Positions 4,932 through 39,341 of a stretch of DNA of 64,000 nt are shown in pieces. This stretch comes from Clostridia bacterium (lineage in GTDB: Bacteria > Bacillota > Clostridia > Christensenellales > CAG-138), in assembly GCA_017509785.1 (NCBI GenBank), contig JAFWOT010000012.1:69476-133475 (forward strand), written 5' to 3'. The notes below the pieces were generated by a model. The model was given only the letters and a program-made list of their open reading frames with translations, made no database searches and was not told where the DNA came from. The stretch's first letter is position 1. Each line of letters starts with the position of its first letter. The position numbers and the translations under genes were made by a program.

Positions 4932-5007
4932 AATGGATCCCGGAAGGATGTACGTCCACCGCGAATAGAAAAACGAAGAGAATGATCTGGAGGTAGATGG
5001 AACCATT

Positions 5008-6320: not shown

Positions 6321-6329
6321 CCTGGAGCA

Positions 6330-7225: not shown

Positions 7226-7269
7226 CATCCCGGGCTATACGGAGCCGGGATCGGGAGGAAAAGCATACC

Positions 7270-7632: not shown

Positions 7633-7768
7633 TCCGTGTACATAGATTAACAAAGAACGATTTGCGGAGCCCTATGATGTCCAAATGGAATACAAGTTAT
7701 AAAAGAGCAGGAAAAGTGGGATGTATATTGTCAAAGCAGAAGCAGATTAGGTAGAAAAAATCGCAGAT

Positions 7769-8531: not shown

Positions 8532-8783
8532 ACAGAAGGAAGGACAAGATTCGGATACGGGATTCTGGAGGAGCACCGGGGGCAGGGCTATGCCGCGGAA
8601 GCGGTGCAGGCGGCCTGCCGATGGGCTTTCCTGCACCCGGATGTAAGGTCCCTGGAAGCGGAAACGGACGCCGAGAACGCAGCGTTGCAGAGAGTCCTCG
8701 AAAAAAGCGGCTTTCGTCCCAACGGGACATTCGGAGAGGAAGGGCCTCGCTTTACGCTGGGCCGCCTTGATGTTGCAGAATGA
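8532..8783 (+). pseudogene. C-terminal fragment of a RimJ/RimL-type GNAT acetyltransferase (no start codon, N-terminal half missing)
   Basis: The frame opens right after the DUF3795 stop. It reads TEGRTRFGYGILEEHRGQGYAAEAVQAACRWAFLHPDVRSLEAETDAENAALQRVLEKSGFRPNGTFGEEGPRFTLGRLDVAE*. It is absent from the ORF track because it has no Met. Confidence 0.65.
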
Positions 8784-10168
8784 ACAAGATGAATGATATG
8801 AAAATGAACGGCAGCCTTACAGTCAACAAAATCCCATACCGCCTTCTTCGCCTGCTGGGGAAAGGCAAGGGCGGGTATTCCTATCTCGCAGAACGGAATG
8901 GGCAACAGGTGGTGGTCAAGCAGATCCATCACGAGCCCTGCGATTATTATGCCTTCGGCAACAAGATCGAGGCGGAATTGCGGGATTATGAGCGGCTGCA
9001 AAAAGCCGGCATCCGCATCCCTCGGATGCATGCCGTTGACAGAGACGCCGAGCGGATCGTCAAGGACTATATCGAGGGGCCGACTGTGATTGAGTTGGTA
9101 CGCTCCGGCGTATCGGTCGAGCCATATCTGCCCCAGGTGCGGGATATGGCGTATAAGGCCATGGCTGCAGGGCTGAATATCGACTATTACCCCACCAATT
9201 TTGTCCTGCATGATGGACTGCTTTGGTACGTGGATTATGAGTGCAACGACTACAGCGAGCAGTGGGACTTCGAACACTGGGGTATGCAGTACTGGCTGCC
9301 CAAGGTGAGCTTCCGCAGTTACCGGGACGAGGATTACGAGGCGGTTTGCGATTTTCTGATCGAATTGAATCAGAAGGACCGAACGCACATCAACTGGAAC
9401 TGGGCCCGCTTTGAATGGATGATGGAGCACCCGGAGTTTGACAAAAGCGCCGTCTCCTCCATCGGGCTCTGGCGGTCGGAGGGAAAGGTCGTCGGCGCGG
9501 CGATCTACGATATGTACTTTGGAGAAGCCTTCTGTGCCGCCCTGCCGGAGTATGAGGCGCTGTACCCGGAAATTCTGGACTACGCCTACCGGGAACTGAA
9601 GGACGGTACCGGGCTGGCTGTCGCGATCAATCAGGAAAACGCAGCAGAAATAAAGGCCGCTTTACAGGCAGGATTCGAGCGGATCGATCAGAAAGAGACG
9701 ATCATGGAGCTCTCCCTGGACAGAGATTTCTCATCAAAGCTTCCCGAGGGGCTGCAGCTTCGGGAGATGGATCAGATCGCGGATCGGGAAGCTCTTGAGT
9801 GGCTGTTCTGGCAGGGATTTGATCACGGGGACGACCGGGAAGCGTTTGAACGCTCGCTGGATCATGTTCCACATGTCCGAAGGCATTTCAACAAAGCCCT
9901 ATGCCTCTCCGCCGCGGACCCTTCCGGAGAGCCGGTATCGCACTGCTCCCTCTGGTTTCATTCAGATACGGACTACGCCTATGTGGAGCCGGTCTGCACG
10001 ATCCACGGTTACCGCGGGAAAGGGATCGCCGCCGCGCTCCTTTCGGAAGCTTTTTCACGCGCAAAAGCTTTAGGCGCAAAGAAAGCCTACGTGATCTCCG
10101 ATCTCCCGTTCTATGAGAAGCTCGGCTTTGAAAAAGCGCAGCAGTACTCGTTTTACCGGAAGGCATAA
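8780..10168 (+). CDS. Fusion protein: N-terminal RIO/Bud32-like small protein kinase fold plus C-terminal GNAT acetyltransferase region
   Basis: Kinase-like elements are LGKGKGGYSY (Gly loop), VVVKQ (Lys), DYIEGPTV (hinge), NIDYYPTNFV (catalytic loop) and YVDYE. The C-terminus GYRGKGIAAALLSEAFSRAKALGAKKAYV...FYEKLGF is GNAT motif A/B. Confidence 0.7.
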   Translation: MNKMNDMKMNGSLTVNKIPYRLLRLLGKGKGGYSYLAERNGQQVVVKQIHHEPCDYYAFGNKIEAELRDYERLQKAGIRIPRMHAVDRDAERIVKDYIEGPTVIELVRSGVSVEPYLPQVRDMAYKAMAAGLNIDYYPTNFVLHDGLLWYVDYECNDYSEQWDFEHWGMQYWLPKVSFRSYRDEDYEAVCDFLIELNQKDRTHINWNWARFEWMMEHPEFDKSAVSSIGLWRSEGKVVGAAIYDMYFGEAFCAALPEYEALYPEILDYAYRELKDGTGLAVAINQENAAEIKAALQAGFERIDQKETIMELSLDRDFSSKLPEGLQLREMDQIADREALEWLFWQGFDHGDDREAFERSLDHVPHVRRHFNKALCLSAADPSGEPVSHCSLWFHSDTDYAYVEPVCTIHGYRGKGIAAALLSEAFSRAKALGAKKAYVISDLPFYEKLGFEKAQQYSFYRKA

Positions 10169-10285
10169 AGGGCTCGGCCCGGCCTTCCTTCGGGATAGCA
10201 GCAGGACAGATCCGAGCAGGAAATGACAGGACGATTTCCGCTTTGAGAGATACAATGAACCCATCAAGGGACGGAGGACCAGCCG

Positions 10286-11179
10286 ATGGAGTGGCTTACC
10301 AGCATTCGTACAGCAATCCATTATATAGAAGAGCATCTGACCGACGACATCAGTGCGCAGGATGTGGCGGATCGGGTGTATCTTTCTCCGTTCTTTCTTC
10401 AGAAGGGATTCTCTCTGATGACCGGATACGGCATCGGAGAGTATATCAGGAACCGCAGGCTGTACCGGGCGGCGTTGGATCTGAAGGAGACGGATGATAA
10501 AGTGATCGACATTGCATTTCGGTACGGGTATGAAACACCGGAAAGCTTTACAAAGGCTTTCTCCCGGTTCCATGGCGCAACACCTTCACAGGTGCGCGGC
10601 GGAGCGGCAATCAACACATTCCTTCCCTTGACAATCAAACTATCCATTCAGGGAGGTAATCAGATGGACTATAAAATCACACCGATGTTCCCGTTTAAGG
10701 TTATCGGCTTTCAGAAAGAGTTTGACAATGAAACCGCATACGCTGAGATACCAAAGTACTGGGATGAGATCTGTGAAAAGTATGCTTACAGCGTGTATGC
10801 CGGAAATGCCCCGGCGAATCCCTATGAGCAGGCTCTGGTAGATAACTGCATCGGGGAATATGGCGTTTGTATCGATGACATTGGCGGAGGTAAGTTCCGC
10901 TATCTCGTTGCCGGTAAATACACGGGCGGCGATGTACCGGAAGGCATGGTTGTCTATGAGTTTCCCAGGAGCGACTGGGCGGTGTTCAACTGCATTGGTC
11001 CGATCCCGGATGCACTTCAGAGCGTGAACACGCGAATCTTCCGGGAGTGGCTTCCCGGCAATCCGGAGTATGAGCTTTGCGGTAATGCCAGCGTGGAGTG
11101 GTATGATTGTGTAAACGGAGAAAAAACAGATCCCGACTACCATAGCGCGATCTGGGTGCCGGTGAGGAGGAAAGAATAA
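10286..11179 (+). CDS. AraC-family transcriptional regulator with a GyrI-like effector-binding domain
   Basis: IDIAFRYGYETPESFTKAFSRFHGATPSQVR is the AraC HTH. The C-terminal 160 aa (DYKITPMFPFKVIGF...AIWVPV) has the GyrI-like/SOUL pattern. Confidence 0.88.
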   Translation: MEWLTSIRTAIHYIEEHLTDDISAQDVADRVYLSPFFLQKGFSLMTGYGIGEYIRNRRLYRAALDLKETDDKVIDIAFRYGYETPESFTKAFSRFHGATPSQVRGGAAINTFLPLTIKLSIQGGNQMDYKITPMFPFKVIGFQKEFDNETAYAEIPKYWDEICEKYAYSVYAGNAPANPYEQALVDNCIGEYGVCIDDIGGGKFRYLVAGKYTGGDVPEGMVVYEFPRSDWAVFNCIGPIPDALQSVNTRIFREWLPGNPEYELCGNASVEWYDCVNGEKTDPDYHSAIWVPVRRKE

Positions 11180-11241
11180 ACAGAAAATAATTACAGTACC
11201 AGCTTAAGCGAACTGATTCAATCGTTAAATTCATAAAGGAA

Positions 11242-11271
11242 ACACAGCGGGAAGATTGGCTCCCGCTGTGT
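11242..11271. terminator. Bidirectional intrinsic terminator
   Basis: ACACAGCGGGA (11242-11252), an 8-nt loop, TCCCGCTGTGT (11261-11271), then CCGTTTTA. It sits between the convergent AraC gene and the TnpV remnant. Confidence 0.65.
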
Positions 11272-11295
11272 CCGTTTTATACTTCTCATGGTTGG

Positions 11296-11538
11296 CTATT
11301 CAAAGTATTCCGCAAGCACGATTTCTTCCGCCGTGTTCCCGAAGGAATTGATTTCCTGTACCCACCGTAGTTGGTCACGGCACTTCAGATCCTCGTTGAC
11401 GCCGCTTTTCTTCGCCAATTCCAAAGTCAGATCCCAAATGCGTTCGCTGATGTACTCGTCCTGTGCTGGCAGGTATTCTTTCAGCGTTCCCTCGAACAGA
11501 AGGGAGGTGTACTTGTCCGGATCATGTTCCTTGAGCAT
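11296..11538 (-). CDS. TnpV-family (transposon-encoded) protein remnant. The original start at 11592 is cut off by an in-frame TGA.
   Basis: C-terminus LKCRDQLRWVQEINSFGNTAEEIVLAEY resembles the TnpV family block (LKA.DQM.WV..MN.I...AEEIV, from memory). Upstream in frame: RBS GGAGG, then ATG 11592, MNTNELGWI, TGA (11563-11565), RYGSKLLA, Met 11538. Confidence 0.6.
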   Translation of the reverse strand: MLKEHDPDKYTSLLFEGTLKEYLPAQDEYISERIWDLTLELAKKSGVNEDLKCRDQLRWVQEINSFGNTAEEIVLAEYFE

Positions 11539-11642
11539 GGCAAGCAGTTTACTGCCATAGCGTCAGATCCAACCCAATTCATTCGTGTTCATCTCTTTTT
11601 CCTCCGTTTTGGTTTTATTTCAGAAGCACTGAGATAAACAAC

Positions 11643-11682
11643 AAATCCGAACCCATCGCCAATCAGCTTCAGGTTCGGATTT
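11643..11682 (-). terminator. Intrinsic terminator downstream of tRNA-Asn
   Basis: AAATCCGAACC (11643-11653) pairs with GGTTCGGATTT (11672-11682). On the minus strand it is followed by GTTGTTT. Confidence 0.5.
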
Positions 11683-11690
11683 AGATTGAA

Positions 11691-11766
11691 TGGCTCCCCC
11701 TGTTGGACTCGAACCAACGACACTGCGGTTAACAGCCGCATGCTCTACCGACTGAGCTAAGGAGGA
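11691..11766 (-). tRNA. tRNA-Asn (anticodon GTT), CCA encoded
   Basis: The reverse complement reads TCCTCCTTAGCTCAGTCGGTAGAGCATGCGGCTGTTAACCGCAGTGTCGTTGGTTCGAGTCCAACAGGGGGAGCCA. It folds as a cloverleaf with a 7-bp acceptor stem, anticodon loop CTGTTAA and T-loop GGTTCGAGTCC. Confidence 0.95.
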
Positions 11767-11787
11767 ATGTTCTTTTCAACGCTTGCT

Positions 11788-11816
11788 ATTATACGACTGT
11801 ACGATGAAAAAAGCAA
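11788..11816 (-). promoter_or_regulatory. SigA-type promoter of tRNA-Asn
   Basis: On the minus strand: TTGCTT (11816-11811), 17 nt, TATAAT (11793-11788), about 20 nt upstream of the tRNA 5' end. Confidence 0.6.
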
Positions 11817-11856
11817 CCCCTTTTTTCAAATATATTGTACATTCGAAAACGCACTC

Positions 11857-11907
11857 ATGCGCGATTTTGCGCATATACTTGAATGCGCGTAAGAAATGGC
11901 TTATAAT
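11857..11907 (+). promoter_or_regulatory. SigA-type promoter of the CDF transporter gene with ATGCGC repeats (candidate metalloregulator operator)
   Basis: TTGAAT (11879-11884), 17 nt, TATAAT (11902-11907). Palindrome ATGCGC-n6-GCGCAT at 11857-11874, plus a third ATGCGCG at 11883-11889 inside the spacer. Confidence 0.6.
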
Positions 11908-12007
11908 TGACCTGCCGCTAAATTCTTCCTGTGCGGGAGAAAACGGCTCCTTCATTCAAAAACCTGCCGCGAATGAAGCGCTTCACGGCAAAAACGAGGT
12001 TGTCGAA

Positions 12008-13210
12008 ATGATCTCATTATTATCGAGGATATTCATCAAGCGGCGCGAAGAGTATTCGGATCCCGCGGTGCGCCGCTCCTACGGCGTGCTGTGCGGGGCT
12101 GTGGGTATCGCGCTCAACGTTCTGCTTTTTATCGGCAAATTCATCGTCGGGACAGCGGCGGCCTCCGTTTCGATAACGGCGGACGCATTCAACAACCTTT
12201 CCGACGCGGGCAGCTCCGTCGTCACCCTGATAGGGTTCCGGCTCGCGGGGCTGAAGCCGGATCCCGAGCATCCCTACGGACACGGCAGGATGGAGTACGT
12301 CTCCGGGCTGATCGTTGCGATGGTCATTATCCTCATGGGGTTCGAGCTGCTCATCTCCTCCATCGAGAGGATCGTCTCCCCCGAGGCGACGGAATTCTCA
12401 TGGACGGGCGTCGCGGTGCTTGCCGCATCCATACTGGTGAAGGCCTACATGTTCATCTATAACCGAGTCACCGCCCACAGGATAGATTCGGTTGCGATGA
12501 AGGCGACCGCGCTCGATTCCCTTACCGACTGCATAGCGACGCTCGCGGCGCTCGCGGCGCTGATCGCGGGCAGGTATCTCAACTGGCGCATTGACGGCTG
12601 GAGCGGTGCTTTCGTCTCGCTCTTCGTGATCTATTCCGGCTTTTCCGCCGCTAAGGAGACCATAAGCCCCCTGCTCGGTCAGCCGCCGGAAAGGGAGCTC
12701 GTCGATGATATAGAGCGCACGGTGACGGCACATGAGAACATCCTCGGCATACACGATCTCGTAGTCCATGATTACGGCCCCGGGCGCATGATGATGAGCC
12801 TGCACGCCGAGGTCCCCGCGGAGGGCGACGTGCTTGAGCTCCACGACCTGATCGACAATATCGAGCGCGAGCTCAAGGAGAAGTTCTCCTGTGAAGCGGT
12901 CGTTCACATGGATCCCGTCCGCACGCATGACGAGGTGACGGAAAGGCTTAAGCTTATGACGTGCGAGATACTTCGCTCGGTCTCGCCGGAGCTCCGGATG
13001 CATGATTTCAGAGTCGTGACCGGGCCGACCCACACGAACCTTTTATTCGACGTTGTGGTGCCTTTCGGTTTTAAGAAGAGCTTCGAGGAGATCTCCCGCG
13101 AGATCAATAAAAGGCTTGAAAGCGTTAACGACGGGAAGTTTTTTGCCGTTATCGATTTCGACCGCGAATTTGTGAAGAATGATGAAAGGGAGGGCGGGCG
13201 AACAAAATGA
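12008..13210 (+). CDS. Cation diffusion facilitator (CDF) family metal efflux transporter
   Basis: ITADAFNNLSDAGSSVVTLIGFRLAGLKPDPEHPYGHGRMEY plus a C-terminal cytoplasmic domain. ATG 12008 lies downstream of the promoter; the listed start 11783 would run through the promoter. Confidence 0.9.
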   Translation: MISLLSRIFIKRREEYSDPAVRRSYGVLCGAVGIALNVLLFIGKFIVGTAAASVSITADAFNNLSDAGSSVVTLIGFRLAGLKPDPEHPYGHGRMEYVSGLIVAMVIILMGFELLISSIERIVSPEATEFSWTGVAVLAASILVKAYMFIYNRVTAHRIDSVAMKATALDSLTDCIATLAALAALIAGRYLNWRIDGWSGAFVSLFVIYSGFSAAKETISPLLGQPPERELVDDIERTVTAHENILGIHDLVVHDYGPGRMMMSLHAEVPAEGDVLELHDLIDNIERELKEKFSCEAVVHMDPVRTHDEVTERLKLMTCEILRSVSPELRMHDFRVVTGPTHTNLLFDVVVPFGFKKSFEEISREINKRLESVNDGKFFAVIDFDREFVKNDEREGGRTK

Positions 13211-21385: not shown

Positions 21386-22429
21386 ATGGAAACGAAAAGC
21401 TTCAAGATCCGTGATATCGCGATCGGCGGCGGGGCTCCCGTCACGATCCAGTCAATGACGAATACCGACACGCGTGACGCCCGGGCCACTGCAGCCCAGA
21501 TACTCGAGCTCGAAGCCGCCGGCTGCGAGATAGTGCGCTTTTCCGTCTATGACGAGGACTGCGCGAAGGCCATCCCAACGATAAGGGAGCTCACGCATAT
21601 ACCCCTCGTCGCGGATATCCATTTCGATCACAGGCTTGCCATAGCGGCTATCGAGAACGGGATCGACAAGGTCCGCATCAATCCGGGCAATATAGGCTCC
21701 GAAGCGAAGGTGCGCGAGCTCGTCGCCGCGGCAAAGGAAAGGCACATCCCGATAAGGATAGGCGTCAACGGCGGTTCGCTCGAAAAGGACGTGCTTGCGA
21801 AATACGGCGTCACCGCCGAGGCGATGGTCGAGAGCGCGCTTTCGCACGTCGCTATACTGGAGCGCTGCGGCTTTGAGGATATAGTCCTCTCGCTGAAGGC
21901 CTCCACCGTAGCAAAGACGGTCGAAGCTTACCGCATTGCGCGCGAGCGCACGCCGTATCCGCTCCACCTCGGAGTGACGGAGGCGGGCAGCGGTGAAGCG
22001 GCTCTCGTCAAGTCCTCCATCGGGATCGGGTCTCTGCTCCTCGACGGGATAGGCGACACCATCCGCGTTTCGATGACGGGTTCCCCCGTGCAGGAGGTGC
22101 ATGCCGCCAAGCGCATTTTAAACGCCGTCGGTCTTCGGAGCGAGGGCGTGGAGGTCGTCTCCTGCCCGACCTGCGGCAGGACGCGGGTGGATCTGCCCGC
22201 GATCGTCGAGAGGGTCTCGAATGCCCTCCCGAATACGGATAAGCCCCTCCGCGTCGCAGTAATGGGCTGCGCCGTTAACGGCCCGGGGGAGGCGAGGGAG
22301 GCGGATATCGGCATCGCCTTCGGGAGCGTGAACGCGGTCGTTTTCAGAAAGGGAGAGCTCGTCTATTCCGATAAGCTCCCCGGAGTTATAGACAGATTCA
22401 TAGAGGACGTTAAAAAGGAATTGCGATGA
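21386..22429 (+). CDS. ispG: 4-hydroxy-3-methylbut-2-en-1-yl diphosphate synthase
   Basis: IGGGAPVTIQSMTNTDTRD...RINPGNIG...VSCPTCGRT...VMGCAVNGPGEA. ATG 21386 lies after the rseP stop; the listed TTG 21371 would overlap it. Confidence 0.95.
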   Translation: METKSFKIRDIAIGGGAPVTIQSMTNTDTRDARATAAQILELEAAGCEIVRFSVYDEDCAKAIPTIRELTHIPLVADIHFDHRLAIAAIENGIDKVRINPGNIGSEAKVRELVAAAKERHIPIRIGVNGGSLEKDVLAKYGVTAEAMVESALSHVAILERCGFEDIVLSLKASTVAKTVEAYRIARERTPYPLHLGVTEAGSGEAALVKSSIGIGSLLLDGIGDTIRVSMTGSPVQEVHAAKRILNAVGLRSEGVEVVSCPTCGRTRVDLPAIVERVSNALPNTDKPLRVAVMGCAVNGPGEAREADIGIAFGSVNAVVFRKGELVYSDKLPGVIDRFIEDVKKELR

Positions 22430-25400
22430 GCGGAAGCGAATACGTCGAAATGGGCGGAAGGCTGCAAAAGGATTCCGCCTTTAAAATATCAAAAGCGGCA
22501 TGGGTGAAGTCCCTCGGCAGATTCGATGTCGGGGTCGAGGCGGCGCGCATGCTCCTTCCCAACGAGATGGAGGCCGTCGAGCGCGTCATAAAGGCGAAGC
22601 TCGACACCCCTTCCGTCACCTGCAGGTTCGATTTTAAAAAGGCGCTCGAGGAGTTTTCACAACTCCCCGACGGGGAGCTCGCGGGCTTCTTCATAGAGAG
22701 CTGGAGCCAGCTCTGTCCCGAGCTCGCGCCGGTGCTCGGGAACTGCGCGGTGGAGGTCACGGGCGAGAAGGATTCGCGCGTGTTCTGCCTTGCCGCGGCG
22801 CCCGCACTCGTTTTTGCGCTCAGCGACGACCGCGTCACCGGCTTCAGGGCCGCCGCTAACGAGATCTGGGGCTGGAATTTCGCGGTTCGTGTCACCGCCG
22901 ACGATTCCATAACCGAGCTTCGCCGCGTGGATATCTCCGCCTATTCGGAAAGGGCCGTCGGCGATCTCCCCGCGGGGAGCGTCCCCGCGCCTAAGCCGCA
23001 GAGAAGAGCGAAGCAGAATTCCCCGGCGGAGGGCGTCATTTACGGAAAGGATATCTCGAACGCAAGCGTTTTGAGCATGGCGGAATTCGGCGAACAGACC
23101 GGCACGGCCGCCGCCGTCGGCTCCATGATAGACATGGAGGTCACGGAGACCCGCAACAAACAGCGCAGCATTATCAAATTCACCTTCACGGATAAGACCA
23201 ACTCCCTCACGGTCAAGCTCTTCCCGAAATCCGATAAGGCGGGCGAGATCGTTTCCGCTCTCGAGGACGTAAAAAAGAAGGGCGATCTGCTCGCCGTCAG
23301 GGGGTCTTACGAATACGATTCCTACTCGCGGGATTACGTTTTCATTGCAAGCGACATCAACCGCCGCAAGGCCGTGAAGCGGTCGGACGATTCCCCGGCG
23401 GGCGAAAAGCGCGTGGAGCTCCATCTGCATACCCAATCCTCCACCATGGACGCGCTTACGAAGGTCGACGAGGTCGTCAGGACCGCTTACAGGTGGGGCC
23501 ACAGAGCCGTCGCGATAACGGATCACGGCGTCGTCCATTCCCTGCCCGAGGCAATGAAGGCCTATAAGGATCTCAAAAAGAAGGCCGCGGAAGAGGGCAA
23601 GGAATTCGATTTCAAGGTCATATTCGGATGCGAGGGATACCTCGTCAACGACTCGACCGATCACTCCCCAGATGAGAGCGACTTCACCGCCGTCTCCGCA
23701 ACGGCGGCGCAGTCCCCCGCGGGCACTTCCGTATTTGAGATATGCGCCATCCGTTTCGACCCTTCGGGCAGCGAAAAGGGCTTTTTCCGCACGCTCGTGA
23801 ATTCCGGCGCGGCGCTGCCCGCGTGGGCGGCGGAGGAATGCGGCGTCGATGAAGCAGAGCGCGCCTCGGCGCCCGATCAGATGACGGCCGTAAATGAGCT
23901 CCTGCGATTCGCGGAGGGCTCCGTCATAGCCGCATATAATGACGGCGTCATGAACGGCCTCGCCGCCCAGCTCCCCGATGAGGACAGCTTCCCCTTCGAA
24001 TACGTCGATATAAACAAGCTCGAGCTGAACGTCCATCTTGACGTCAAGGATTACAGCATGGAGTCGGGCTGCGCTCCGATATCCGGCAGGTATGAAGCCG
24101 CGCCCCTCCGCCCGGCGGAGGAGAACGCCCGCTCGATACGCGATCTTCTTTTGGGCATGATCGGCGAGCTCCGCGAAAGGGGCTGCGGCGTGCTGCCCCG
24201 TTGGGACAGACGCTCTCCCGACTTCAAAAAACTTCAGCGCTATCATATAATACTGCTCGCTTCTTCGCTGCCGGGGCTGAAAAACCTCTATAAGCTCGTC
24301 TCCTATTCGCACCTGCAGTATTTCCATAAGCGCCCCTGCATCCCGAGAAGCCTGCTCAACATGCTGAGGGGCGGCATAATACTCGGCTCCGCCTGTGAGG
24401 CGGGCGAGCTTTACCGCGCCGTTTCCCGCGGCAGGAGCGATGAGGAGCAGCGCCGCATAGCCTCGTGGTACGATTATCTCGAGATACAGCCCCTCGATAA
24501 CAACATGTTCATGCTCGATTCCGATGAGATGAAGTGGACGCTCGACGACCTGAAGGATCATAACCGCCGCGTTGTCGGGCTCGCGGACGAGCTCGGCAAG
24601 CCCGCCGTCGCCACCTGCGACGTGCATTTCCTCGATCCGGACGACGCGATCTACCGTTCCATACTCCTGCATTCGCAGGGCTTCCGTGACGCCACACGCA
24701 TGACGCCGCTCTTCTTCCGCACGACGGAGGAGATGCTTGAGGAATTCAGTTACCTCGGGGAGGAGAAGGCGAGGGAGATAGTCATAACCAACCCCAACAG
24801 GATCGCCGATCTCTGCGGCGAGCAGCTCCATCCCTTCCTTGACGAGCAGTTCACCTATTCGCCGGAGCTCCCCAACGCGAAGGAGATCCTGCAGGAGATG
24901 ACCATGGCGGAGGCTCACAGGCGCTACGGCGATCCCCTTCCGGAGATCGTCCGGGCAAGGCTCGATAAGGAGCTGAGATCCATAGTCGGCAACGGGTATT
25001 CCTCGCTCTACATGGTGGCTCAGAAGCTCGTGGCGAAGTCCCTTTCGGATGGGTATCTCGTCGGCTCCCGAGGTTCGGTCGGCTCATCCTTCGTCGCGAC
25101 TATGCTTGGGATAACCGAGGTCAACGCTCTGCCGCCGCACTATCTCTGCCCCGAATGCAGGTATTCCGAATTCGTGCTCGATTCGCATTCGAGGTGCGGC
25201 ATCGATCTGCCCGACAAGCTCTGCCCCAAATGCGGGACTAAGCTCAAAAAGGAGGGCTACGATATCCCGTTCGAGGTCTTCCTCGGCTTCAAGGGCGACA
25301 AGACCCCGGATATCGACCTAAATTTCTCGGGAGATTATCAGCCCGTGGCTCACCATTTCACCGAGGAGATGTTCGGCGCGGGGCACGCCTTCCGCGCGGG

Positions 25401-26727
25401 GACGATCTCCGGAGTGCAGGATAAGACCGTCTACGGTTACGTGAAGCACTACTGCGAGGATCTCGGGCTCAATAAATCCGAAGCGGAGATAAACCGTCTC
25501 GTCCAGGGCTGCCTCGGGGTCAAGAAGACCTCCGGTCAGCACCCGGGCGGAATAGTCATCGTCCCCGAGGATTACGAGATCTTCGATTTCTGCCCCGTGC
25601 AGCACCCCGCCGACAAGAACGACGCCGGCTCGGTCACGACGCACTTCGATTTCCATGCCCTCGACGATAAGCTCGTTAAGCTCGACATACTCGGCCATGA
25701 CGACCCGACCGTGCTGAGGATGCTCCACGATATAACCGGGCTCGATCCTCGCACCATCCCGCTCGACGATCCGGAGACAATGAGCATCTACCGCACGGAC
25801 GAGGCCTTGAAGGTCAGCCTGAAGCCCCTCGGGTGCGACGTCGGCTCCCTTGCGATACCCGAATTCGGCACCAACTTCGTAAGGGGTATGCTCGTCGAGA
25901 CCCGCCCCACCACGATGGAGGAGCTTGTCCGCATATCGGGGCTTTCCCACGGAACGGACGTCTGGAACAACAACGCACAGGTCCTCGTCGAGAACGGCAC
26001 GGCGACCCTCATGGAGGTCATCTGCACCCGAGATGATATAATGAATTATCTCATCTCGATGGGCGGCGATCCCTCGCTTTCGTTCAAGACGATGGAATCC
26101 GTCCGAAAGGGCAGGGGCCTCAAGGAGGAGATGGAGACCATGATGCGTGAGATAAGCGTCCCCGAATGGTTCATAGACAGCTGCAAAAAGATCAAATACA
26201 TGTTCCCGCGGGCGCACGCCGCGGCCTACGTAATGATGAGCTTCCGCGTCGCCTACTATAAGGTGCATTACCCGCTCGAATTCTACTCCGTCTATTTCAC
26301 CGTCCGAGCGGATACTTTCGATATCCAACTCTGCCGGGGAGGGCTCGAAGCCGTAATGGAGAACCTGAAACTCCTTAAATCCAAGGACAAGCCCGAGCAG
26401 AAGGAGAAGGACGCCATCACCATATTGGAAGTCGTCGCCGAAATGAACCTCCGCGGGTTCGAGCTGCTCCCCGTCGATATTTATAAATCGAAGGCCAAGA
26501 CCTTCGTCATCGAGGACGGGAAGATCCGCCCGCCGTTCACGTCCGTCGCCGGTCTCGGCGAGAACGTCGCCCTCCAGATAGAGAGCGCCGCAAAGGACGG
26601 CGAATACTCCTCGCGCGAGGATTTTGCCGTGCGAACGAAGGCGAATACCGCGATCATGGAGAAGCTCGCCGAGCTCGGCTGCTTTGACGAGCTGCCCGAC
26701 ACGGATCAGATAAGCTTTGGGGTATGA
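22426..26727 (+). CDS. polC: DNA polymerase III PolC-type (Gram-positive replicative polymerase). Its exonuclease insert appears degenerate.
   Basis: 1433 aa. Split PHP (VELHLHTQSS, AITDHG, GCEGY ... YHIILLA, GSACEAG, ATCDVHF). Zn-finger CPECRYSE...CPKCG. Polymerase core GGIVIVP and DILGHDD. ATGA overlap with ispG. Confidence 0.97.
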   Translation: MSGSEYVEMGGRLQKDSAFKISKAAWVKSLGRFDVGVEAARMLLPNEMEAVERVIKAKLDTPSVTCRFDFKKALEEFSQLPDGELAGFFIESWSQLCPELAPVLGNCAVEVTGEKDSRVFCLAAAPALVFALSDDRVTGFRAAANEIWGWNFAVRVTADDSITELRRVDISAYSERAVGDLPAGSVPAPKPQRRAKQNSPAEGVIYGKDISNASVLSMAEFGEQTGTAAAVGSMIDMEVTETRNKQRSIIKFTFTDKTNSLTVKLFPKSDKAGEIVSALEDVKKKGDLLAVRGSYEYDSYSRDYVFIASDINRRKAVKRSDDSPAGEKRVELHLHTQSSTMDALTKVDEVVRTAYRWGHRAVAITDHGVVHSLPEAMKAYKDLKKKAAEEGKEFDFKVIFGCEGYLVNDSTDHSPDESDFTAVSATAAQSPAGTSVFEICAIRFDPSGSEKGFFRTLVNSGAALPAWAAEECGVDEAERASAPDQMTAVNELLRFAEGSVIAAYNDGVMNGLAAQLPDEDSFPFEYVDINKLELNVHLDVKDYSMESGCAPISGRYEAAPLRPAEENARSIRDLLLGMIGELRERGCGVLPRWDRRSPDFKKLQRYHIILLASSLPGLKNLYKLVSYSHLQYFHKRPCIPRSLLNMLRGGIILGSACEAGELYRAVSRGRSDEEQRRIASWYDYLEIQPLDNNMFMLDSDEMKWTLDDLKDHNRRVVGLADELGKPAVATCDVHFLDPDDAIYRSILLHSQGFRDATRMTPLFFRTTEEMLEEFSYLGEEKAREIVITNPNRIADLCGEQLHPFLDEQFTYSPELPNAKEILQEMTMAEAHRRYGDPLPEIVRARLDKELRSIVGNGYSSLYMVAQKLVAKSLSDGYLVGSRGSVGSSFVATMLGITEVNALPPHYLCPECRYSEFVLDSHSRCGIDLPDKLCPKCGTKLKKEGYDIPFEVFLGFKGDKTPDIDLNFSGDYQPVAHHFTEEMFGAGHAFRAGTISGVQDKTVYGYVKHYCEDLGLNKSEAEINRLVQGCLGVKKTSGQHPGGIVIVPEDYEIFDFCPVQHPADKNDAGSVTTHFDFHALDDKLVKLDILGHDDPTVLRMLHDITGLDPRTIPLDDPETMSIYRTDEALKVSLKPLGCDVGSLAIPEFGTNFVRGMLVETRPTTMEELVRISGLSHGTDVWNNNAQVLVENGTATLMEVICTRDDIMNYLISMGGDPSLSFKTMESVRKGRGLKEEMETMMREISVPEWFIDSCKKIKYMFPRAHAAAYVMMSFRVAYYKVHYPLEFYSVYFTVRADTFDIQLCRGGLEAVMENLKLLKSKDKPEQKEKDAITILEVVAEMNLRGFELLPVDIYKSKAKTFVIEDGKIRPPFTSVAGLGENVALQIESAAKDGEYSSREDFAVRTKANTAIMEKLAELGCFDELPDTDQISFGV

Positions 26728-28928: not shown

Positions 28929-28978
28929 TGTGCTTATTGGGCAAGCACAATTATACACGGAGCGATCATCCCTGTCAA
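28929..28978 (-). promoter_or_regulatory. Consensus SigA promoter of the ABC/GntR operon with an operator palindrome at the transcription start
   Basis: On the minus strand: TTGACA (28978-28973), 17 nt, TATAAT (28955-28950). Inverted repeat TGTGCTT-n7-AAGCACA lies immediately after, at 28929-28949. Confidence 0.7.
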
Positions 28979-28987
28979 GAGGGGTGC

Positions 28988-29016
28988 GAATATTTTTTCA
29001 TGCGGGGAGAATAATA
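28988..29016 (+). promoter_or_regulatory. Candidate forespore sigma (SigG/SigF-type) promoter of spoVT
   Basis: GAATA (28988-28992), 17 nt, AATAATA (29010-29016), compared with GHATR-n17/18-CATnnTA. It lies 31 nt upstream of ATG 29047. Confidence 0.35.
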
Positions 29017-29046
29017 AAACCACGAATAAAGAAGGAGACTCGTTTA

Positions 29047-29604
29047 ATGAAAGCAACAGGGATAGTCAGAAGGATAGATGAGCTCGGGCGTGTGGTCATC
29101 CCGAAGGAGATAAGGCGCACCCTCCGCATAAGGGAGGGAGACCCGCTCGAGATATTCGTAGACCGCGAGGGCGGCGTGATATTGAGGAAGTATTCGCCCA
29201 TCGGCGAGCTCGGGGATTACGCGGAGGAGTTCGCGGCAGCGCTGCACCGTTCGCTCGGGTGCGTGTGCGCCGTCTGCGACAGGGACGTATTCATCGCGGC
29301 CGCGGGCGTCCCGAAAAAGGAGCTCGTCGGCCGTCCCGTCCATGAACAGCTCGATAACGTAATGCGGGAACGCATCAGGGCGATCGCTTCGGCAGCCTCC
29401 GGCGAGGCGGTCATCCCCGTCGCCGCGGGGGAGGACGAACCCGCTTACACGGCGGAGCTGATAGTGCCCGTCGTCTCGTCCGGGGATCCGATCGGCGCGG
29501 TGATACTCCTTTCGAAGGAGCGGGGAGCGGCATTCGGCGAAGCGCATCTCAAGGCCTGCGAAACGGCGGCAGGCTTCATGGGCAGGCAGCTCGAGGACAG
29601 GTGA
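29047..29604 (+). CDS. spoVT: Stage V sporulation protein T (AbrB/SpoVT-type regulator with a GAF-like C-terminal domain)
   Basis: MKATGIVRRIDELGRVVIPKEIRRTLRIREGDPLEIFVDREGGVILRKYSP. RBS AAGGAGA. The listed start 28930 is an upstream extension. Confidence 0.92.
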   Translation: MKATGIVRRIDELGRVVIPKEIRRTLRIREGDPLEIFVDREGGVILRKYSPIGELGDYAEEFAAALHRSLGCVCAVCDRDVFIAAAGVPKKELVGRPVHEQLDNVMRERIRAIASAASGEAVIPVAAGEDEPAYTAELIVPVVSSGDPIGAVILLSKERGAAFGEAHLKACETAAGFMGRQLEDR

Positions 29605-32454: not shown

Positions 32455-35400
32455 ATGAGCTTTACACATCTGCATGTACATACAGAATACAGCCTCCTTG
32501 ACGGCGCTTCGAGGATCGGCGACCTCGTCGACCGCGCCGCGGAGCTCGGGTTCGATTCAATAGCGATAACCGATCACGGCGTCATGTACGGCGTTATAGA
32601 TTTCTATAACGCCTGCAGGAAGAAGGGCATAAAGCCCATCATCGGTATGGAGGCGTACGTCGCGCCGAAGTCCATATACGAGCCTGCGACTGCCCGCGAT
32701 TACGCGCATCTCATAATTCTCTGCAAGAACGAGACGGGCTACAGGAACCTCATGAAGCTCTCATCGATCGCCTTCGTCGACGGTTTCTATTATAAGCCGA
32801 GGATAGACTACGATCTTCTCGAAAAGTATTCCGAGGGGCTGATCGTGCTCTCCGCCTGCCTCGCGGGCGATATACCGCAGTATCTTCTCAACGAGCAGTA
32901 TTCGGAAGCCCGGAAGCTTGCCGAAAGGCTGAAGATGATATTCGGAGAGGATTTCTATATAGAGCTCCAGAACCACGGCATCCCCGAACAGCAGGTCGTC
33001 CTGCCCAGACTGAACGCGCTCGCGAAGGAGCTCGGGATAAAGACCGTCGCCACGAACGACGTGCATTACGTCAACAGGGACGACGCCGAAGCGCAGGATG
33101 CGCTCCTCTGCATACAGACGGGGCATTTCGTCGACGAGACCAACCGCATGCGCATGGAGGCGGAGGAGTTCTATTTAAAATCCGAGGAGGAGATGCTCCG
33201 CAGGTTCGGCGGCTATGAGGATGCGATAGCCAATACGGCCGAAGTCGCCGCGAAATGCGATCTCGAGATAGAGCTCGGCGGCAGGCATCTGCCGGAGTTC
33301 ACCCCGCCGGACGGCATGGGGCACGAGGAATATCTCCGGAAGCTCTGCGGCGAGGGAATGATAAAGCGCTTCGGCGAGCATCCCGACCCGGTCTATACCG
33401 AAAGGCTTGAGTATGAGATCAGCGTGATCGCCAAGATGGGCTTCGTCGATTATTTCCTCATAGTCTGGGATTTCATTCACTACGCGAAGACACACGGCAT
33501 ACCCGTCGGCCCCGGCAGGGGCTCGGGAGCGGCTTCGATAGTCGCCTACACGCTTGAGATCACGGATCTCGATCCCATAAAATACAACCTCCTCTTCGAG
33601 CGCTTTCTCAATCCGGAGAGGATCACCATGCCCGATATCGACGTCGACTTCTGCTATGAGCGCAGGCAGGAGGTCATCGACTACGTCGTCCGGAAATACG
33701 GCGCGGATCACGTCGCACAGATAATCACGTTCGGTACTATGGCGGCAAGAGCCGTCGTGAGGGATGTCGGAAGGGTCCTCCGCGTGCCGTATAACGAGGT
33801 CGACAAGATCGCGAAGCTCATCCCGCAGATGCTCAAGATAACTCTGAAGCAGGCGCTTGAAATGGTGCCGGAGCTGAAGGAGCTCTACGAAGGCAATGAA
33901 ACCTATAAAAAACTGATCGACCTTTCCATGAAGCTGGAGGGGCTGCCGCGCCATGCTTCGACGCACGCGGCGGGCGTCGTCATCTCCTCAAAGCCGACTA
34001 TGGAGCTCGTCCCCCTGCAGAGGAACGAGGATTCCATCACCACCCAGTACCCGATGGGCACGCTCGAGGCGCTCGGCATGCTTAAGATGGATTTCCTCGG
34101 ACTGCGGACGCTCACTGTAATACACGACTGCTGTGAATTTATAAAGCAGCGCGGCGACGAGGCGCCCGATTTTCCCGCGCTCGGCTATGACGACAGGCAC
34201 GTTTACGAGCTCATCTCATCGGGCGACACGATAGGCATTTTCCAGCTCGAATCCGCCGGGATGACGAACTTCATGATGCAGATGAAGCCCGGCTGCTTCG
34301 AGGATATAATAGCGGGCATAGCGCTCTTCCGCCCGGGCCCCATGGAGCAGATACCGAGGTATCTCGAGGGCAAGCAGGATTCCTCCTCCGTAACGTACGA
34401 GCATGAAAAGCTTAAGCCCATACTCGGCACCACCTACGGCTGTATGGTCTATCAGGAGCAGGTCATGCAGATCGTGCGCGACCTTGCCGGCTACTCCTAC
34501 GGAAGGAGCGACCTCATACGCCGCGCGATGAGCAAGAAAAAGCACGACGTCATGGAAAAGGAGCGCGTCAATTTCATCAACGGCATAGTCGATGAGGACG
34601 GCACGGTCTCCGTCCCGGGAGCGGTCAGAAACGGCATCCCCGCGGATATCGCCAACAGGATATTCGACGAGATGATGGATTTCGCCTCATATGCGTTCAA
34701 TAAGGCGCACGCCGCGTGCTACGCGGTCGTCGCCTACCGCACGGCATGGCTCAAATACTATTATCCCGTCGAGATGATGACCGCGCTCATCAACTCGTTC
34801 ATCGGCAGCGCGGACAAGATAGCGGATTACATCTATTACTGCCGCAAGAGGGGCTTTGGGATACTGCCGCCCGACATAAACCGCTCGCAGCCTCATTTTA
34901 CCGTTGAGAACGGCGCGATCCGTTTCGGCCTCGTCGCGATCCGTAACGTGGGCGAGGAGGCCATGCGCGAGATGCTCGCAGAGCGCGAACGCGGGGGAGA
35001 CTTTAAGGATCTCGCGGACTTCCTGACGAGGGTCGGCTCCGTCAACAAGCGCATGGTCGAAGGGCTCATAAAGGCGGGCTGCTTCGACAGCCTCGGCTAT
35101 AAGCGCCTCTGGCTCATGCAGAACTATGAGGATGAGATGAATTCCGCCGCAGCGGAGCGCCGCCGCCGCGAGTCCGGGCAGCTTTCGCTCTTCGATATGT
35201 TCGGGGAGGAAACGCCCGCTTCCGCTCCCGCGCAGATACCGAAAAACGCGGAAGAGTATTCGCGCGGGGATCTCCTCTCTATGGAAAAGGAAGCCCTCGG
35301 CATATACATAAGCGGGCATCCCCTTATGGAGTACGAATCGACGCTCCGTCTCATGAACGCGGACTGCAAGCGCCTCTCCGAAGCGGACGGCTCCTCCGGT

Positions 35401-35901
35401 TTTCGTGACAACGAGCGGGTCACCTTCGCGGGGCTCCTCGGCGGGATAAGGACGAGGCAGGTCAAATCCGGCGTCGGAATGATGGCCTACGGCGTGGTCG
35501 AGGATATGACAGGGCAGGTGGAGTTCGCCGCCTTCCCGACGGTGTACTCAAAATACCGCGATCTCTTCACGGACGCCGTCCCCGTCAAGGTGACGGGCAG
35601 GCTCTCCATGCGTGAGGATAAGGCGAACACGATAATGATAGACGAGATCTCAATGCTCGAAAAGACCGAAAGGTACAGGCTCTATCTCCGCTTCGACGCG
35701 GAGAGCGCGAAGAAGCTCGAGAGGGTGACGGAGGTGCTCCGCAGGTACCCCGGGAGCCACGACGTGCTGTTCTTCCGTTCCGATACGGGCAAACAGCAGC
35801 TCGCCCCGAGGGAGCTCTGCGTCAGCGGTTCGGAGGCTCTGCTCGAGGTACTCAGGAACCTTCTCGGGTTCGATAACGTGAAATTCGTAAAGCTCAAATA
35901 A
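32455..35901 (+). CDS. dnaE: DNA polymerase III alpha subunit, DnaE-type
   Basis: FTHLHVHTEYSLLDG, ITDHG, GMEAY, ATNDVHY (PHP). PDIDVDF, FGTMAARAV, HAAGVVI (polymerase core). OB domain near the C-terminus. 1148 aa. Confidence 0.97.
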   Translation: MSFTHLHVHTEYSLLDGASRIGDLVDRAAELGFDSIAITDHGVMYGVIDFYNACRKKGIKPIIGMEAYVAPKSIYEPATARDYAHLIILCKNETGYRNLMKLSSIAFVDGFYYKPRIDYDLLEKYSEGLIVLSACLAGDIPQYLLNEQYSEARKLAERLKMIFGEDFYIELQNHGIPEQQVVLPRLNALAKELGIKTVATNDVHYVNRDDAEAQDALLCIQTGHFVDETNRMRMEAEEFYLKSEEEMLRRFGGYEDAIANTAEVAAKCDLEIELGGRHLPEFTPPDGMGHEEYLRKLCGEGMIKRFGEHPDPVYTERLEYEISVIAKMGFVDYFLIVWDFIHYAKTHGIPVGPGRGSGAASIVAYTLEITDLDPIKYNLLFERFLNPERITMPDIDVDFCYERRQEVIDYVVRKYGADHVAQIITFGTMAARAVVRDVGRVLRVPYNEVDKIAKLIPQMLKITLKQALEMVPELKELYEGNETYKKLIDLSMKLEGLPRHASTHAAGVVISSKPTMELVPLQRNEDSITTQYPMGTLEALGMLKMDFLGLRTLTVIHDCCEFIKQRGDEAPDFPALGYDDRHVYELISSGDTIGIFQLESAGMTNFMMQMKPGCFEDIIAGIALFRPGPMEQIPRYLEGKQDSSSVTYEHEKLKPILGTTYGCMVYQEQVMQIVRDLAGYSYGRSDLIRRAMSKKKHDVMEKERVNFINGIVDEDGTVSVPGAVRNGIPADIANRIFDEMMDFASYAFNKAHAACYAVVAYRTAWLKYYYPVEMMTALINSFIGSADKIADYIYYCRKRGFGILPPDINRSQPHFTVENGAIRFGLVAIRNVGEEAMREMLAERERGGDFKDLADFLTRVGSVNKRMVEGLIKAGCFDSLGYKRLWLMQNYEDEMNSAAAERRRRESGQLSLFDMFGEETPASAPAQIPKNAEEYSRGDLLSMEKEALGIYISGHPLMEYESTLRLMNADCKRLSEADGSSGFRDNERVTFAGLLGGIRTRQVKSGVGMMAYGVVEDMTGQVEFAAFPTVYSKYRDLFTDAVPVKVTGRLSMREDKANTIMIDEISMLEKTERYRLYLRFDAESAKKLERVTEVLRRYPGSHDVLFFRSDTGKQQLAPRELCVSGSEALLEVLRNLLGFDNVKFVKLK

Positions 35902-37815: not shown

Positions 37816-37857
37816 AAGCGGCGCGTGAGGATCCTGATCCCCGCACCGCTTTTTATT
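37816..37857. terminator. Bidirectional intrinsic terminator between convergent genes
   Basis: Imperfect hairpin AAGCGGCGCGTGAGGATC / GATCCCCGCACCGCTT (37816-37851) followed by TTTTATTT. Confidence 0.6.
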
Positions 37858-39341
37858 TACAGCAATATGCAGATGAGGCCGCTGCAGCCGTCGTTCACCA
37901 TGCGGTTCAGCGTTTCCCGCAGGCGGAGCTGCACCTCGGGCGGGAGATTGTTTATCTTTCCCGTCATGCCCTCCTTCACGAGATCGTAGATGGGCTTGCC
38001 GAATATGTTAGTCGACCAGATCTCGTCCGGGCTGGTCTCGAACGTGTTCATGAGATACGAAGCAAGCTCCTCGCCCTGCTCTTCCGTGCCGACGAGCGGG
38101 TTGACCTCGCTCTCGATATCGACCCTTATTATATGCAGGCCGGAAGCGTGCGCCTTCAGCTTCACGCCGAAACGGCTCCCGTGGTGGACTATCTCCGGGC
38201 GGTCGAGCTGCATCTCGTCGATCTTCGGCGGAACGAGCCCGTAGCCGAACTCGTTAGCGGCCTTCAGCGCCTGAGCCACGCGGTCGTATTCCCGCTTTGC
38301 GAGGACGAGCTCCTTCAGCGAACTCATCAGCTCGGATTCGTCGGCGATCTCGCATCCGCACTGCTCCGAGAGGATCCGATAGAACACGCCCTCCTTCGGT
38401 TCAAGACGGTACTCTAAGCCCCCGTCGCCGAGCGTCATCCCCTCGAGCCGAGGCGGGAGCATATCCGCAAGCCCGCTCAAAGGCTCCGTGAGCTTCGCAT
38501 GATCGCGCATCCTCGAAATTTCGGGCAGCGCGGCGCGCACGGCGTCAAGCACGCCCCGCATGAGCGGGTGCTCCGCTCCGAGGGCTCTGACCCAGCGCGG
38601 CAGGGATACCGTCAGCGTGCGGACGGGGAAGTCATAGAGCACGTTCTCGAGAAGCTTTCCTATATCGGACGAGGTCATGTTCATCACGTCCACGGTGAGC
38701 ACGCTGACCGAGTATTTCTTCTCTATCTCCCCGGAGCAGCGGAGCGCGGCCTCGCTTTCGGGCTCCGTGCTGTTGAGTATGACGGCAAAGGGCTTGCCCG
38801 TTCTCCTCAGCTCCGAAAAGACCTTTTCCTCTGCGGGCTCGTATGCTTCCCGCGGGATCCCCGTGACGGAACCGTCCGTCAGCACGACGATCCCGACGGT
38901 CGAGTGCTCCGTGATGACCCTTCTCGTGCCGATCTCCGCCGCCTCGTTAAAGGGGATATCATGGTCGAACCAGGGCGTCCGCACCATCCTCGGGGCCTCC
39001 TCCTCCAAAGCGCCGAGCGCACCCTCCACCATAAAGCCGACGCAGTCTATCATGCGCACGGAAAGTTCCGCCTCCTCTTCGCTGCCCAGCCTGACGCTGA
39101 CGGCGTCGTTCGGCACGAACTTCGGCTGCGTGGTCATTACCGTCCTGCCGGAGCCGCTCTGCGGGAGCTCGTCGACGACCCTGTCGCGTATATGCCCGTT
39201 CTCTATATTCGGTATCACAAGAGTATCCATAAAACGCTTTATAAACGTTGATTTCCCCGTCCGCACGGGACCGACGACTCCGATATATATGTCGCCCTGC
39301 GTCCTCTGCGCGATATCGCGGTAAAGTTCCGCTCTTTCCAT
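37857..39341 (-). CDS. spoIVA: Stage IV sporulation protein A (spore coat morphogenetic ATPase)
   Basis: YRDIAQRTQGDIYIGVVGPVRTGKSTFIKRFMD...ELPQSGSGRTVMTTQPKFVP. 494 aa. Confidence 0.96.
   Translation of the reverse strand: MERAELYRDIAQRTQGDIYIGVVGPVRTGKSTFIKRFMDTLVIPNIENGHIRDRVVDELPQSGSGRTVMTTQPKFVPNDAVSVRLGSEEEAELSVRMIDCVGFMVEGALGALEEEAPRMVRTPWFDHDIPFNEAAEIGTRRVITEHSTVGIVVLTDGSVTGIPREAYEPAEEKVFSELRRTGKPFAVILNSTEPESEAALRCSGEIEKKYSVSVLTVDVMNMTSSDIGKLLENVLYDFPVRTLTVSLPRWVRALGAEHPLMRGVLDAVRAALPEISRMRDHAKLTEPLSGLADMLPPRLEGMTLGDGGLEYRLEPKEGVFYRILSEQCGCEIADESELMSSLKELVLAKREYDRVAQALKAANEFGYGLVPPKIDEMQLDRPEIVHHGSRFGVKLKAHASGLHIIRVDIESEVNPLVGTEEQGEELASYLMNTFETSPDEIWSTNIFGKPIYDLVKEGMTGKINNLPPEVQLRLRETLNRMVNDGCSGLICILL

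Follow-up and report, generated by a model that had tools for sequence, protein, structure and literature searches.

We analyzed a stretch of 64,000 nucleotides (nt) of contig JAFWOT010000012.1 from a Clostridia bacterium (in the following called the window) and concentrated on its polC gene, which encodes the DNA polymerase III alpha subunit of the PolC type. In this protein all five catalytic residues of the DEDDh-type exonuclease domain that is inserted into the PHP domain are substituted. The insert is kept at full length and in a predicted DnaQ-like fold, part of its selective constraint persists, and the same dead state was observed in a whole clade of related sequences. We consider it rather probable that a pseudo-exonuclease insert has been kept in a working PolC and that editing is done by the PHP site; for the latter part we infer the activity from a complete set of metal ligands.

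The catalytic positions of the exonuclease insert

The protein passes two PolC equivalog models of NCBIfam (NF001688 with 1447.1 bits at a cut-off of 873, and TIGR01405 with 1323.5 bits at a cut-off of 1043). Pfam detects the PHP, DNA_pol3_alpha, finger and HHH_6 domains, with the PHP match split across amino acids (aa) 331-683. In the PDB the protein matches 3f2b (G. kaustophilus) and 9qpc (full-length E. faecium PolC) at E = 0, and the alignment to 9qpc spans aa 190-1431. The domain order is that of a PolC, with the insert lying inside the PHP domain.

For the comparison of the catalytic positions we aligned the window PolC with its 119 best database homologues using MAFFT. Among these 120 sequences 55 are canonical, 62 carry substituted catalytic motifs (in the following called dead) and 3 have the insert deleted. 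At the catalytic columns all 55 canonical PolCs show D-E-D-H-D, within the motifs FDIETTG, HNASFD and HHRAVDD, whereas the window PolC shows S424-T426-M509-R562-N567 and thus retains none of the five DEDDh residues. A hidden Markov model (HMM) of the 55 canonical exonuclease domains matches the window insert with 26.9 bits (E = 1.6e-10) and likewise places M509, R562 and N567 at an Asp, the His and an Asp position; canonical PolCs reach 240-263 bits with this HMM, whereas dead ones stay at 17-57 bits. Comparing the profiles of the dead and the canonical domains with HHalign (probability 100%, E = 1.7e-39) reproduced all five substitutions. HMMER and phmmer set Exo I one residue further to the left, at V423/A425, but this difference in register is immaterial because aa 420-431 (FTAVSATAAQSP) hold no acidic residue. 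Since MAFFT, HMMER and HHalign agree, we rejected an alignment slip that hides a DEDDh site. We therefore regard it as confirmed that all five DEDDh residues are substituted in the window PolC.

This result sharpens the original prediction, which had been made from the letters of the window and had described a full-length insert (about 190 aa) between the two PHP halves that might be a structurally retained but catalytically dead proofreading domain. The insert is indeed present as aa 411-600, and the substitutions to Ser424, Thr426 and Met509 were placed at the correct codons and residue numbers. The loss is real, but it had been counted as four of five positions, with the Asp of Exo III possibly kept as Asp573. 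According to HHalign, Asp573 (24142-24144) aligns to a non-catalytic helix position downstream; the His and Asp of Exo III correspond to R562 and N567, and the count is five of five. No Asp/Glu/Asp/His/Asp was found at the catalytic positions by any of the three alignment methods.

The divergence of the insert is also visible in standard searches. Pfam finds no RNase_T (PF00929) match in the PolC even at E ≤ 1, and the DEDD-domain models of NCBIfam match the insert weakly (best 28.9 bits, cut-off 454). Searched alone by sequence, the insert gave no match in the PDB at E ≤ 10; we therefore established its homology through profile comparison and through the fold.

In DEDDh enzymes the five residues hold the two catalytic metals and provide the general base. 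For E. faecium PolC it has been reported that the double mutation D431A and E433A at Exo I yields an exonuclease-null enzyme (PMC12592400). As two changes at Exo I already abolish this exonuclease, a domain without all five residues is, by analogy with mutagenesis in other DEDDh enzymes, almost certainly inactive as a canonical two-metal nuclease. We also considered whether the catalytic site might have been relocated within the insert. Across 89 dead-clade sequences the insert columns with at least 80% conservation hold only A, F, G, P, L or V, i.e. fold-core residues, and no conserved acidic or histidine column was found. There is accordingly no sign of a relocated active site, and with no conserved polar or acidic column across the clade we rejected this candidate.

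An assembly error between 23680 and 24240, as might also produce such a pattern, is not supported. The database lists the protein identical to the window PolC (entry P0177) for 8 contigs, which are 50 kb to 1 Mb long, and this led us to reject the explanation. One of these contigs, a 182-kb ENA scaffold, has a polC with 100% nucleotide identity to that of the window and the same genes beside it. Two close variants, P0001 and P0178, show 7 and 4 aa differences from the window PolC, all of which lie outside the insert.

Table 1. Features of polC, its product and dnaE in the window (positions refer to the window, residues to the respective protein)
Feature	Position	Strand	Remarks
polC, PolC-type DNA polymerase III alpha subunit	22426-26727	+	Single open reading frame (ORF), 1433 aa
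PHP domain, N-terminal part, aa 325-410	23398-23655	+	Ligands H333, H335, D342, H367, E403
DnaQ-like (DEDDh-fold) insert, almost certainly catalytically degenerate pseudo-exonuclease domain, aa 411-600	23656-24225	+	
Exo I remnant DFTAVSATAAQSP, aa 419-431	23680-23718	+	Asp to Ser424 (TCC, 23695-23697); Glu to Thr426 (ACG, 23701-23703)
Exo II remnant IAAYNDGVMNGLAA, aa 501-514	23926-23967	+	Asp to Met509 (ATG, 23950-23952)
Near-clade-specific, nearly invariant block SFPFEYVDINKLELNVHLDVKDYSMESGCAPISGRYE, aa 521-557	23986-24096	+	
Exo III remnant APLRPAEEN, aa 559-567	24100-24126	+	His to Arg562 (24109-24111); Asp to Asn567 (24124-24126)
PHP domain, C-terminal part, aa 601-800	24226-24825	+	Ligands H607, C657, D732, H734; completes HHDHEHCDH
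Polymerase catalytic aspartates D962 and D964 (PDIDLNF)	25309-25317	+	Intact
Putative C-terminal beta-clamp-binding motif QISFGV	26707-26724	+	By position and resemblance only
dnaE, DnaE1-type Pol III alpha	32455-35901	+	1148 aa; 5.7 kb downstream of polC

Distribution and origin of the dead exonuclease domain

Next, we investigated how widely the dead state occurs, a survey of PolC orthologs that had already been suggested with the original prediction. The state is common to 88 sequences, including 27 GTDB species-representative genomes (L001-L027), which are all uncultured metagenome-assembled genomes (MAGs) from rumen or gut. In a neighbour-joining tree built on the PHP and polymerase columns only, with the insert left out, these 88 dead sequences are monophyletic and no canonical PolC falls among them. 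A single clade points to one ancient inactivation; as far as the sequences tell, this implies that the exonuclease was inactivated a single time, in the common ancestor from which a deep clade of uncultured Clostridia of gut and rumen descends.

Labels found among the records of the dead clade are Clostridia bacterium, Christensenellaceae bacterium, Christensenella sp. UBA1214, Clostridium sp. CAG:138 and Candidatus Pelethousia. We found no named cultured member, and a search seeded with a Christensenellaceae MAG PolC returned MAG names only. Large metagenomic clusters belong to the clade as well (P0184 with 5171, P0201 with 3771 and P0230 with 2537 members). When genome contigs were scanned, the best identity of an insert to that of the window PolC was 70%.

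The insert-deleted PolCs (P0081, P0099, P0114 and L034 at 8576-12043) are about 1150-1270 aa long and have an intact PHP motif. In the neighbour-joining tree they branch outside the dead clade, so that loss of the DnaQ-type proofreader by deletion and its loss by decay are independent events. They match the exo-less PolCs that Timinskas et al. described from Clostridia and Negativicutes (PMC3919608).

Fold and selective constraint of the insert

An AlphaFold2 model of the insert (window 23635-24255) reached a mean predicted local distance difference test score (pLDDT) of 91.2 and a predicted template modelling score (pTM) of 0.87. Comparing this model to the PDB with Foldseek, we obtained the exonuclease domain of full-length PolC (9qpc and 9qrn) as top matches, followed by the DnaQ-like domain of DinG, ERI2/3'hExo, 2ido (E. 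coli epsilon), 2p1j (T. maritima PolC exonuclease domain) and RNase T, each with a probability of 1.00. A second model, comprising the PHP domain and the insert (aa 325-800; pLDDT 90.4, pTM 0.86), shows a pLDDT of 93-98 over most of the insert and matches 9qpc at E 3.5e-35 in Foldseek. The RNase H-like DnaQ fold is thus recovered with high confidence by Foldseek and also by HHalign, and we conclude from the models that the insert retains a DnaQ-like exonuclease fold.

Across the whole dead clade the insert measures 177-191 aa and its reading frame is kept. Its sequence, however, changes faster than that of canonical exonuclease domains: at 60-65% identity of the core the dead inserts are 21% identical compared to 49% for canonical ones, and at 85-90% core identity the values are 51% and 75%. 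We calculated the ratio of nonsynonymous to synonymous substitution rates (dN/dS) from codon alignments by the Nei-Gojobori method. The pairs were taken among the GTDB loci, the closest relatives being unusable (P0177/L036 is identical to the window PolC, and P0001 and P0178 show no differences in the insert). For the dead insert we obtained a dN/dS of 0.1-0.55 (0.106 for L004-L005, 0.22 for L014-L024 and 0.20 for the window and L001), compared to 0.04-0.08 for the core of PHP and polymerase domains and 0.1-0.4 for the N-terminal region, which is poorly conserved. The quotient of dN in the insert and dN in the core is 3.6-10.6 in the dead clade and 1.3-2.7 in canonical PolCs. From the dN ratios and from the kept length and frame we conclude that the constraint on the dead insert, as estimated from the sequences, is relaxed several-fold but real and not abolished, and that purifying selection continues.

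In some close pairs (L004/L005, L014/L024 and L026/L027) we recognized that dS itself differs between insert and core (0.49 and 0.18 for L004-L005). This could be due to recombination within polC or to a stronger codon constraint in the core.

By regarding the near part of the dead clade more closely (42 sequences) we observed one block of the insert, aa 521-557 (…EYVDINKLELNVHLDVKDYSMESGCAPISGRYE), that is as conserved as the PHP domain. Its mean conservation is 0.87, compared to 0.54-0.61 in the rest of the insert, and H537, D542, C549 and R555 are invariant. In the far part of the dead clade the block is absent or eroded. Part of it is modelled at a pLDDT of 68-78, both in the insert alone and in the context of the PHP domain, which points to an exposed segment under functional constraint.

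The polymerase, the PHP site and other candidate proofreaders

Outside the insert we found the features of a functional polymerase. The two polymerase aspartates are present, and their equivalents in E. faecium, D972 and D974, are needed for polymerase activity (PMC12592400). The LDILG motif occurs as KLDILGHDD at aa 1085. At the C-terminus, sequences of the near clade end in the hexapeptide-like QI[SK]F[GS]F, compared to QLSLF in canonical PolCs and Q[IV]S[LM]F in the far dead clade. The gene lies in the usual, conserved context dxr-rseP-ispG-polC. With the aspartates, the PHP domain and the putative clamp-type motif present and the core under purifying selection, PolC is otherwise intact and, as predicted from these features, still a working polymerase; it is presumably the main replicase of the organism.

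An 'active' PHP proofreader is marked by the nine-ligand motif HHDHEH[C/H]DH (PMC12926913, PMC3919608). The window PolC carries the complete set (Table 1), and the ligands HHDHEHCDH do not vary across the 120 aligned sequences, be they dead (62), deleted (3) or canonical (55). The Bacilli PolCs 3f2b and 9qpc differ from this pattern in having Asn at the position of D732, the eighth ligand ('atgnvhyl').

The window contains a second alpha subunit gene, dnaE. Its product matches NF005298 with 1649 bits (cut-off 1260) and has the Pfam domains PHP, pol3_alpha, finger, HHH_6 and OB, the clamp motif QLSLF at aa 909 and all nine PHP ligands (H7, H9, D16, H41, E66, H85, C135, D202 and H204). It was assigned to the DnaE1 type by equivalog model, domains and motifs; by this assignment, the organism is a PolC+DnaE1 system. 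The vicinity of polC and dnaE (5.7 kb) was not seen in the 10-kb polC flanks of 27 related genomes. A DnaQ-like ORF was not found in the 64-kb window, nor did the ±10 kb flanks of 37 related loci contain DnaQ-like or dnaE genes besides polC itself.

Proposed explanation and alternatives

Clostridial PolC+DnaE1 systems typically have three 'active' proofreaders, namely the PHP site of PolC, its DnaQ-type domain and the PHP site of DnaE1 (PMC12926913). Such redundancy among three candidate proofreaders may have let the DnaQ-type site of PolC decay. The fold would have been retained as an integral part of the PHP domain, where it presumably aids stability, enzyme architecture or interaction; a structural, scaffolding or interaction role of the dead insert may in the near clade involve the block at aa 521-557. 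Proofreading would then be carried out by the metal-dependent 3'-5' exonuclease of the PHP domains of PolC and of the DnaE1 encoded downstream. The original prediction had named the PHP domain, a stand-alone DnaQ or mismatch repair as sources of fidelity. The complete motifs in PolC and DnaE1 speak for the first of these, while the lack of a DnaQ-like ORF in the window does not favour the second. More tentatively, a whole and abundant clade of gut and rumen Clostridia may replicate with a PolC devoid of DnaQ-type editing, the first natural PolC that depends on PHP proofreading, and the dead domain may be more than a scaffold, having gained a new function in the near clade through the block at aa 521-557; we regard this extended version as possible but doubtful. 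Candidate functions of the block are docking of a trans-acting nuclease, of the clamp or of tau, and guiding of the primer 3' end to the PHP site.

Several points weigh against this explanation. We know of no PolC for which PHP exonuclease activity has been demonstrated, and we found no published assay of the PHP domain of a clostridial PolC in the literature. The completeness of the motif is a proxy for PHP activity, and the activity itself was demonstrated for DnaE-type enzymes, according to work cited in PMC3919608. The search for DnaQ-like genes covered the window and the polC flanks, so that a trans-acting proofreader may be encoded elsewhere in the genome. Neighbour joining and the Nei-Gojobori method, from which the tree and the dN/dS values derive, are simple estimators, and synonymous sites are saturated in several of the pairs. 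Finally, the multiple sequence alignment behind the first AlphaFold2 model held canonical PolCs, whereas that of the second model consisted of dead-clade sequences only.

The last of the points on proofreading leads to an alternative in which a separate DnaQ-like or other 3'-5' exonuclease proofreads in trans, maybe docked on the vestigial domain or on aa 521-557. This block is conserved like the PHP domain and yet exposed and modelled with lower confidence, which is typical of an interaction site. Moreover, bacterial proteomes contain more than three standalone DnaQ homologues on average, and dead exonuclease domains can turn into binding platforms, as illustrated by PolA2, whose dead exonuclease domain bears a clamp motif (PMC12926913). 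A docked partner at this block is, however, no clade-wide solution, because far-clade sequences lack the block or have it in eroded form; in the window and in the ±10 kb around polC of 27 related loci we found no DnaQ-like ORF, and the complete PHP motif makes a partner unnecessary. We regard proofreading in trans as unlikely. A shift of labour between the two polymerases, with DnaE1 as the high-fidelity bulk replicase and PolC in a narrower or lower-fidelity role in which its DnaQ-type proofreader is dispensable, has been raised by Timinskas et al. for PolC+DnaE1 Clostridia, the sole hosts of exonuclease-lacking PolCs (PMC3919608). The DnaE1 of the window would suit this role, since it is full-length, its PHP motif is perfect and its clamp motif is the canonical QLSLF, and the clamp motif of near-clade PolCs departs from QLSLF. 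But purifying selection on the PolC core is very strong (dN/dS 0.04-0.08), its polymerase aspartates and PHP ligands are invariant, the gene keeps its conserved context, and outside the insert we observed no sign of degeneration, so that we judge such a shift to be quite improbable.

That the loss is simply uncompensated, the clade replicating at lower intrinsic fidelity and leaning on mismatch repair or tolerating more mutations, would be in line with the missing biochemical support for PHP editing by PolC and with the loss of every catalytic residue in the insert. The invariance of the nine PHP ligands in dead, deleted and canonical PolCs alike argues for a functional, selected site, and the housekeeping cores evolve at low dN/dS; this explanation appears very unlikely. 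An assembly or sequencing error, a wrong register or a shifted non-canonical active site that hides a functional DEDDh site is hardly credible and already largely refuted. Acidic residues do occur near the motifs (D419, D506, E565 and E566), and HMMER and MAFFT are one residue apart at Exo I. Nevertheless, the protein recurs on 8 contigs, a second assembly has the identical polC, the dead state is found in 88 sequences and 27 species, three alignment methods concur, no acidic or His column of the insert is conserved, and the low scores of the canonical HMM (17-57 bits, compared to 240-263) separate the dead PolCs from the canonical ones. Taken together, we favour a pseudo-exonuclease insert in a working PolC, with editing probably done by the PHP site.

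Other features of the window

A low-GC island at 2100-11690 (GC content 0.50, compared to 0.58 in the rest of the window) ends at a tRNA-Asn gene (11691-11766, minus strand); scanning the whole window with Rfam gave one tRNA and no rRNA. The products of the island are a TetR regulator, a GNAT-chloramphenicol-phosphotransferase-like fusion, a CAT-like protein, a flavodoxin-like protein, a DUF2992 protein, a glyoxalase/bleomycin-resistance-like protein, a second GNAT protein and an AraC/GyrI-like regulator, so that the island has the appearance of a drug-modification gene cluster gained by horizontal transfer. Two adjoining genes for a helicase-loader pair, one product being DnaD/DnaB_2-like and the other a DnaI/DnaC-like AAA+ protein, and the SpoIVA and SpoVT genes were found at 53055-55215 (+), 37857-39341 (-) and 28930-29604 (+); SpoIVA and SpoVT indicate a spore-forming organism. 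An ORF of 459 aa at 48946-50325 (+), which overlaps a DUF885 gene at the latter's end, shows a weak match to 'Recombinase' in Pfam (E 2e-5); it may be spurious or what is left of a serine-recombinase gene.

Comparison with known polymerases and significance

With the canonical PolCs of B. subtilis, G. kaustophilus (3F2B) and E. faecium (9QPC) the window PolC shares the family, the fold of the insert and the overall architecture, consisting of the N-terminal region, the OB domain, the PHP domain with an insert of about 190 aa between its strands, the polymerase core, HhH and the C-terminal clamp-type motif. It differs from them in the missing DEDDh residues, the missing RNase_T match and the faster evolution of the insert, and from the Bacilli PolCs also in having Asp instead of Asn as eighth PHP ligand.

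Loss of the exonuclease as such is not new. Timinskas et al. (2014, NAR) described PolCs of some Clostridia and Negativicutes that lack the exonuclease insert and have the architecture NTD-OB-PHP-Pol3-HhH2, NTD being the N-terminal domain (PMC3919608). In their data unassigned regions of at least 50 aa occur at the protein termini only (PMC3919608), from which it follows that these PolCs are true deletions and not proteins with dead inserts. They resemble the window PolC in the loss of the DnaQ-type proofreader, in the restriction to PolC+DnaE1 organisms and in the conserved PHP metal site (PMC3919608). The insert is physically absent there, however, whereas the window PolC retains a domain of about 190 aa that is folded, as modelled, and under selection, and we rejected an assignment to the exo-less type because the insert is present and, in the models, folded. 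The original prediction had not known of any description of a dead proofreading domain for PolC. A full-text search of open-access papers indeed gave no description of a retained, inactivated PolC exonuclease domain, while loss of the exonuclease by deletion had been published (PMC3919608).

Thermus Pol III alpha and M. tuberculosis DnaE1 are PHP proofreaders with the same nine-ligand motif as the PolC and the DnaE1 of the window; their PHP activity has been demonstrated, while that of the window PolC would follow from the motif. Vestigial DEDD-fold domains, on the other hand, are known from other polymerase families. Inactivated exonuclease domains have been described in about half of the Pol I orthologues, in PolA2/APEX and in PolB2 (PMC12926913). 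In these proteins, as in the window PolC, the domain was kept after the loss of catalysis, and the clamp motif in a loop of PolA2 is a possible analogue of aa 521-557. They are A- and B-family enzymes of repair, accessory or translesion function, however, whereas the window PolC is the subunit of a C-family replicase.

PolC is the standard example of a replicase with an integral DEDDh proofreader. A 2026 survey of the Timinskas group concluded that, among Pol III alpha subunits, decay affects the PHP site while the DnaQ proofreader is not inactivated (PMC12926913). DnaQ activity was scored there by the DEDDh signature in species with complete genomes (PMC12926913), whereas the dead clade consists of MAGs. 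Our findings contradict this generalisation, as the dead clade shows the reciprocal outcome: a decayed DnaQ-type site next to a perfect PHP motif. A clade-wide pseudo-exonuclease domain under selection in a C-family replicase fits well with the redundant proofreaders known in Clostridia. Proteins of the dead clade are labelled as ordinary PolC, which concerns their annotation. The finding further bears on the mutation rates to be expected in these gut and rumen lineages and on the assumed conservation of the exonuclease site across PolCs, which are antibiotic targets (PMC12592400). The dead clade thus offers a natural experiment on whether the PHP domain of PolC can proofread and on what non-catalytic job the exonuclease domain has inside PolC.

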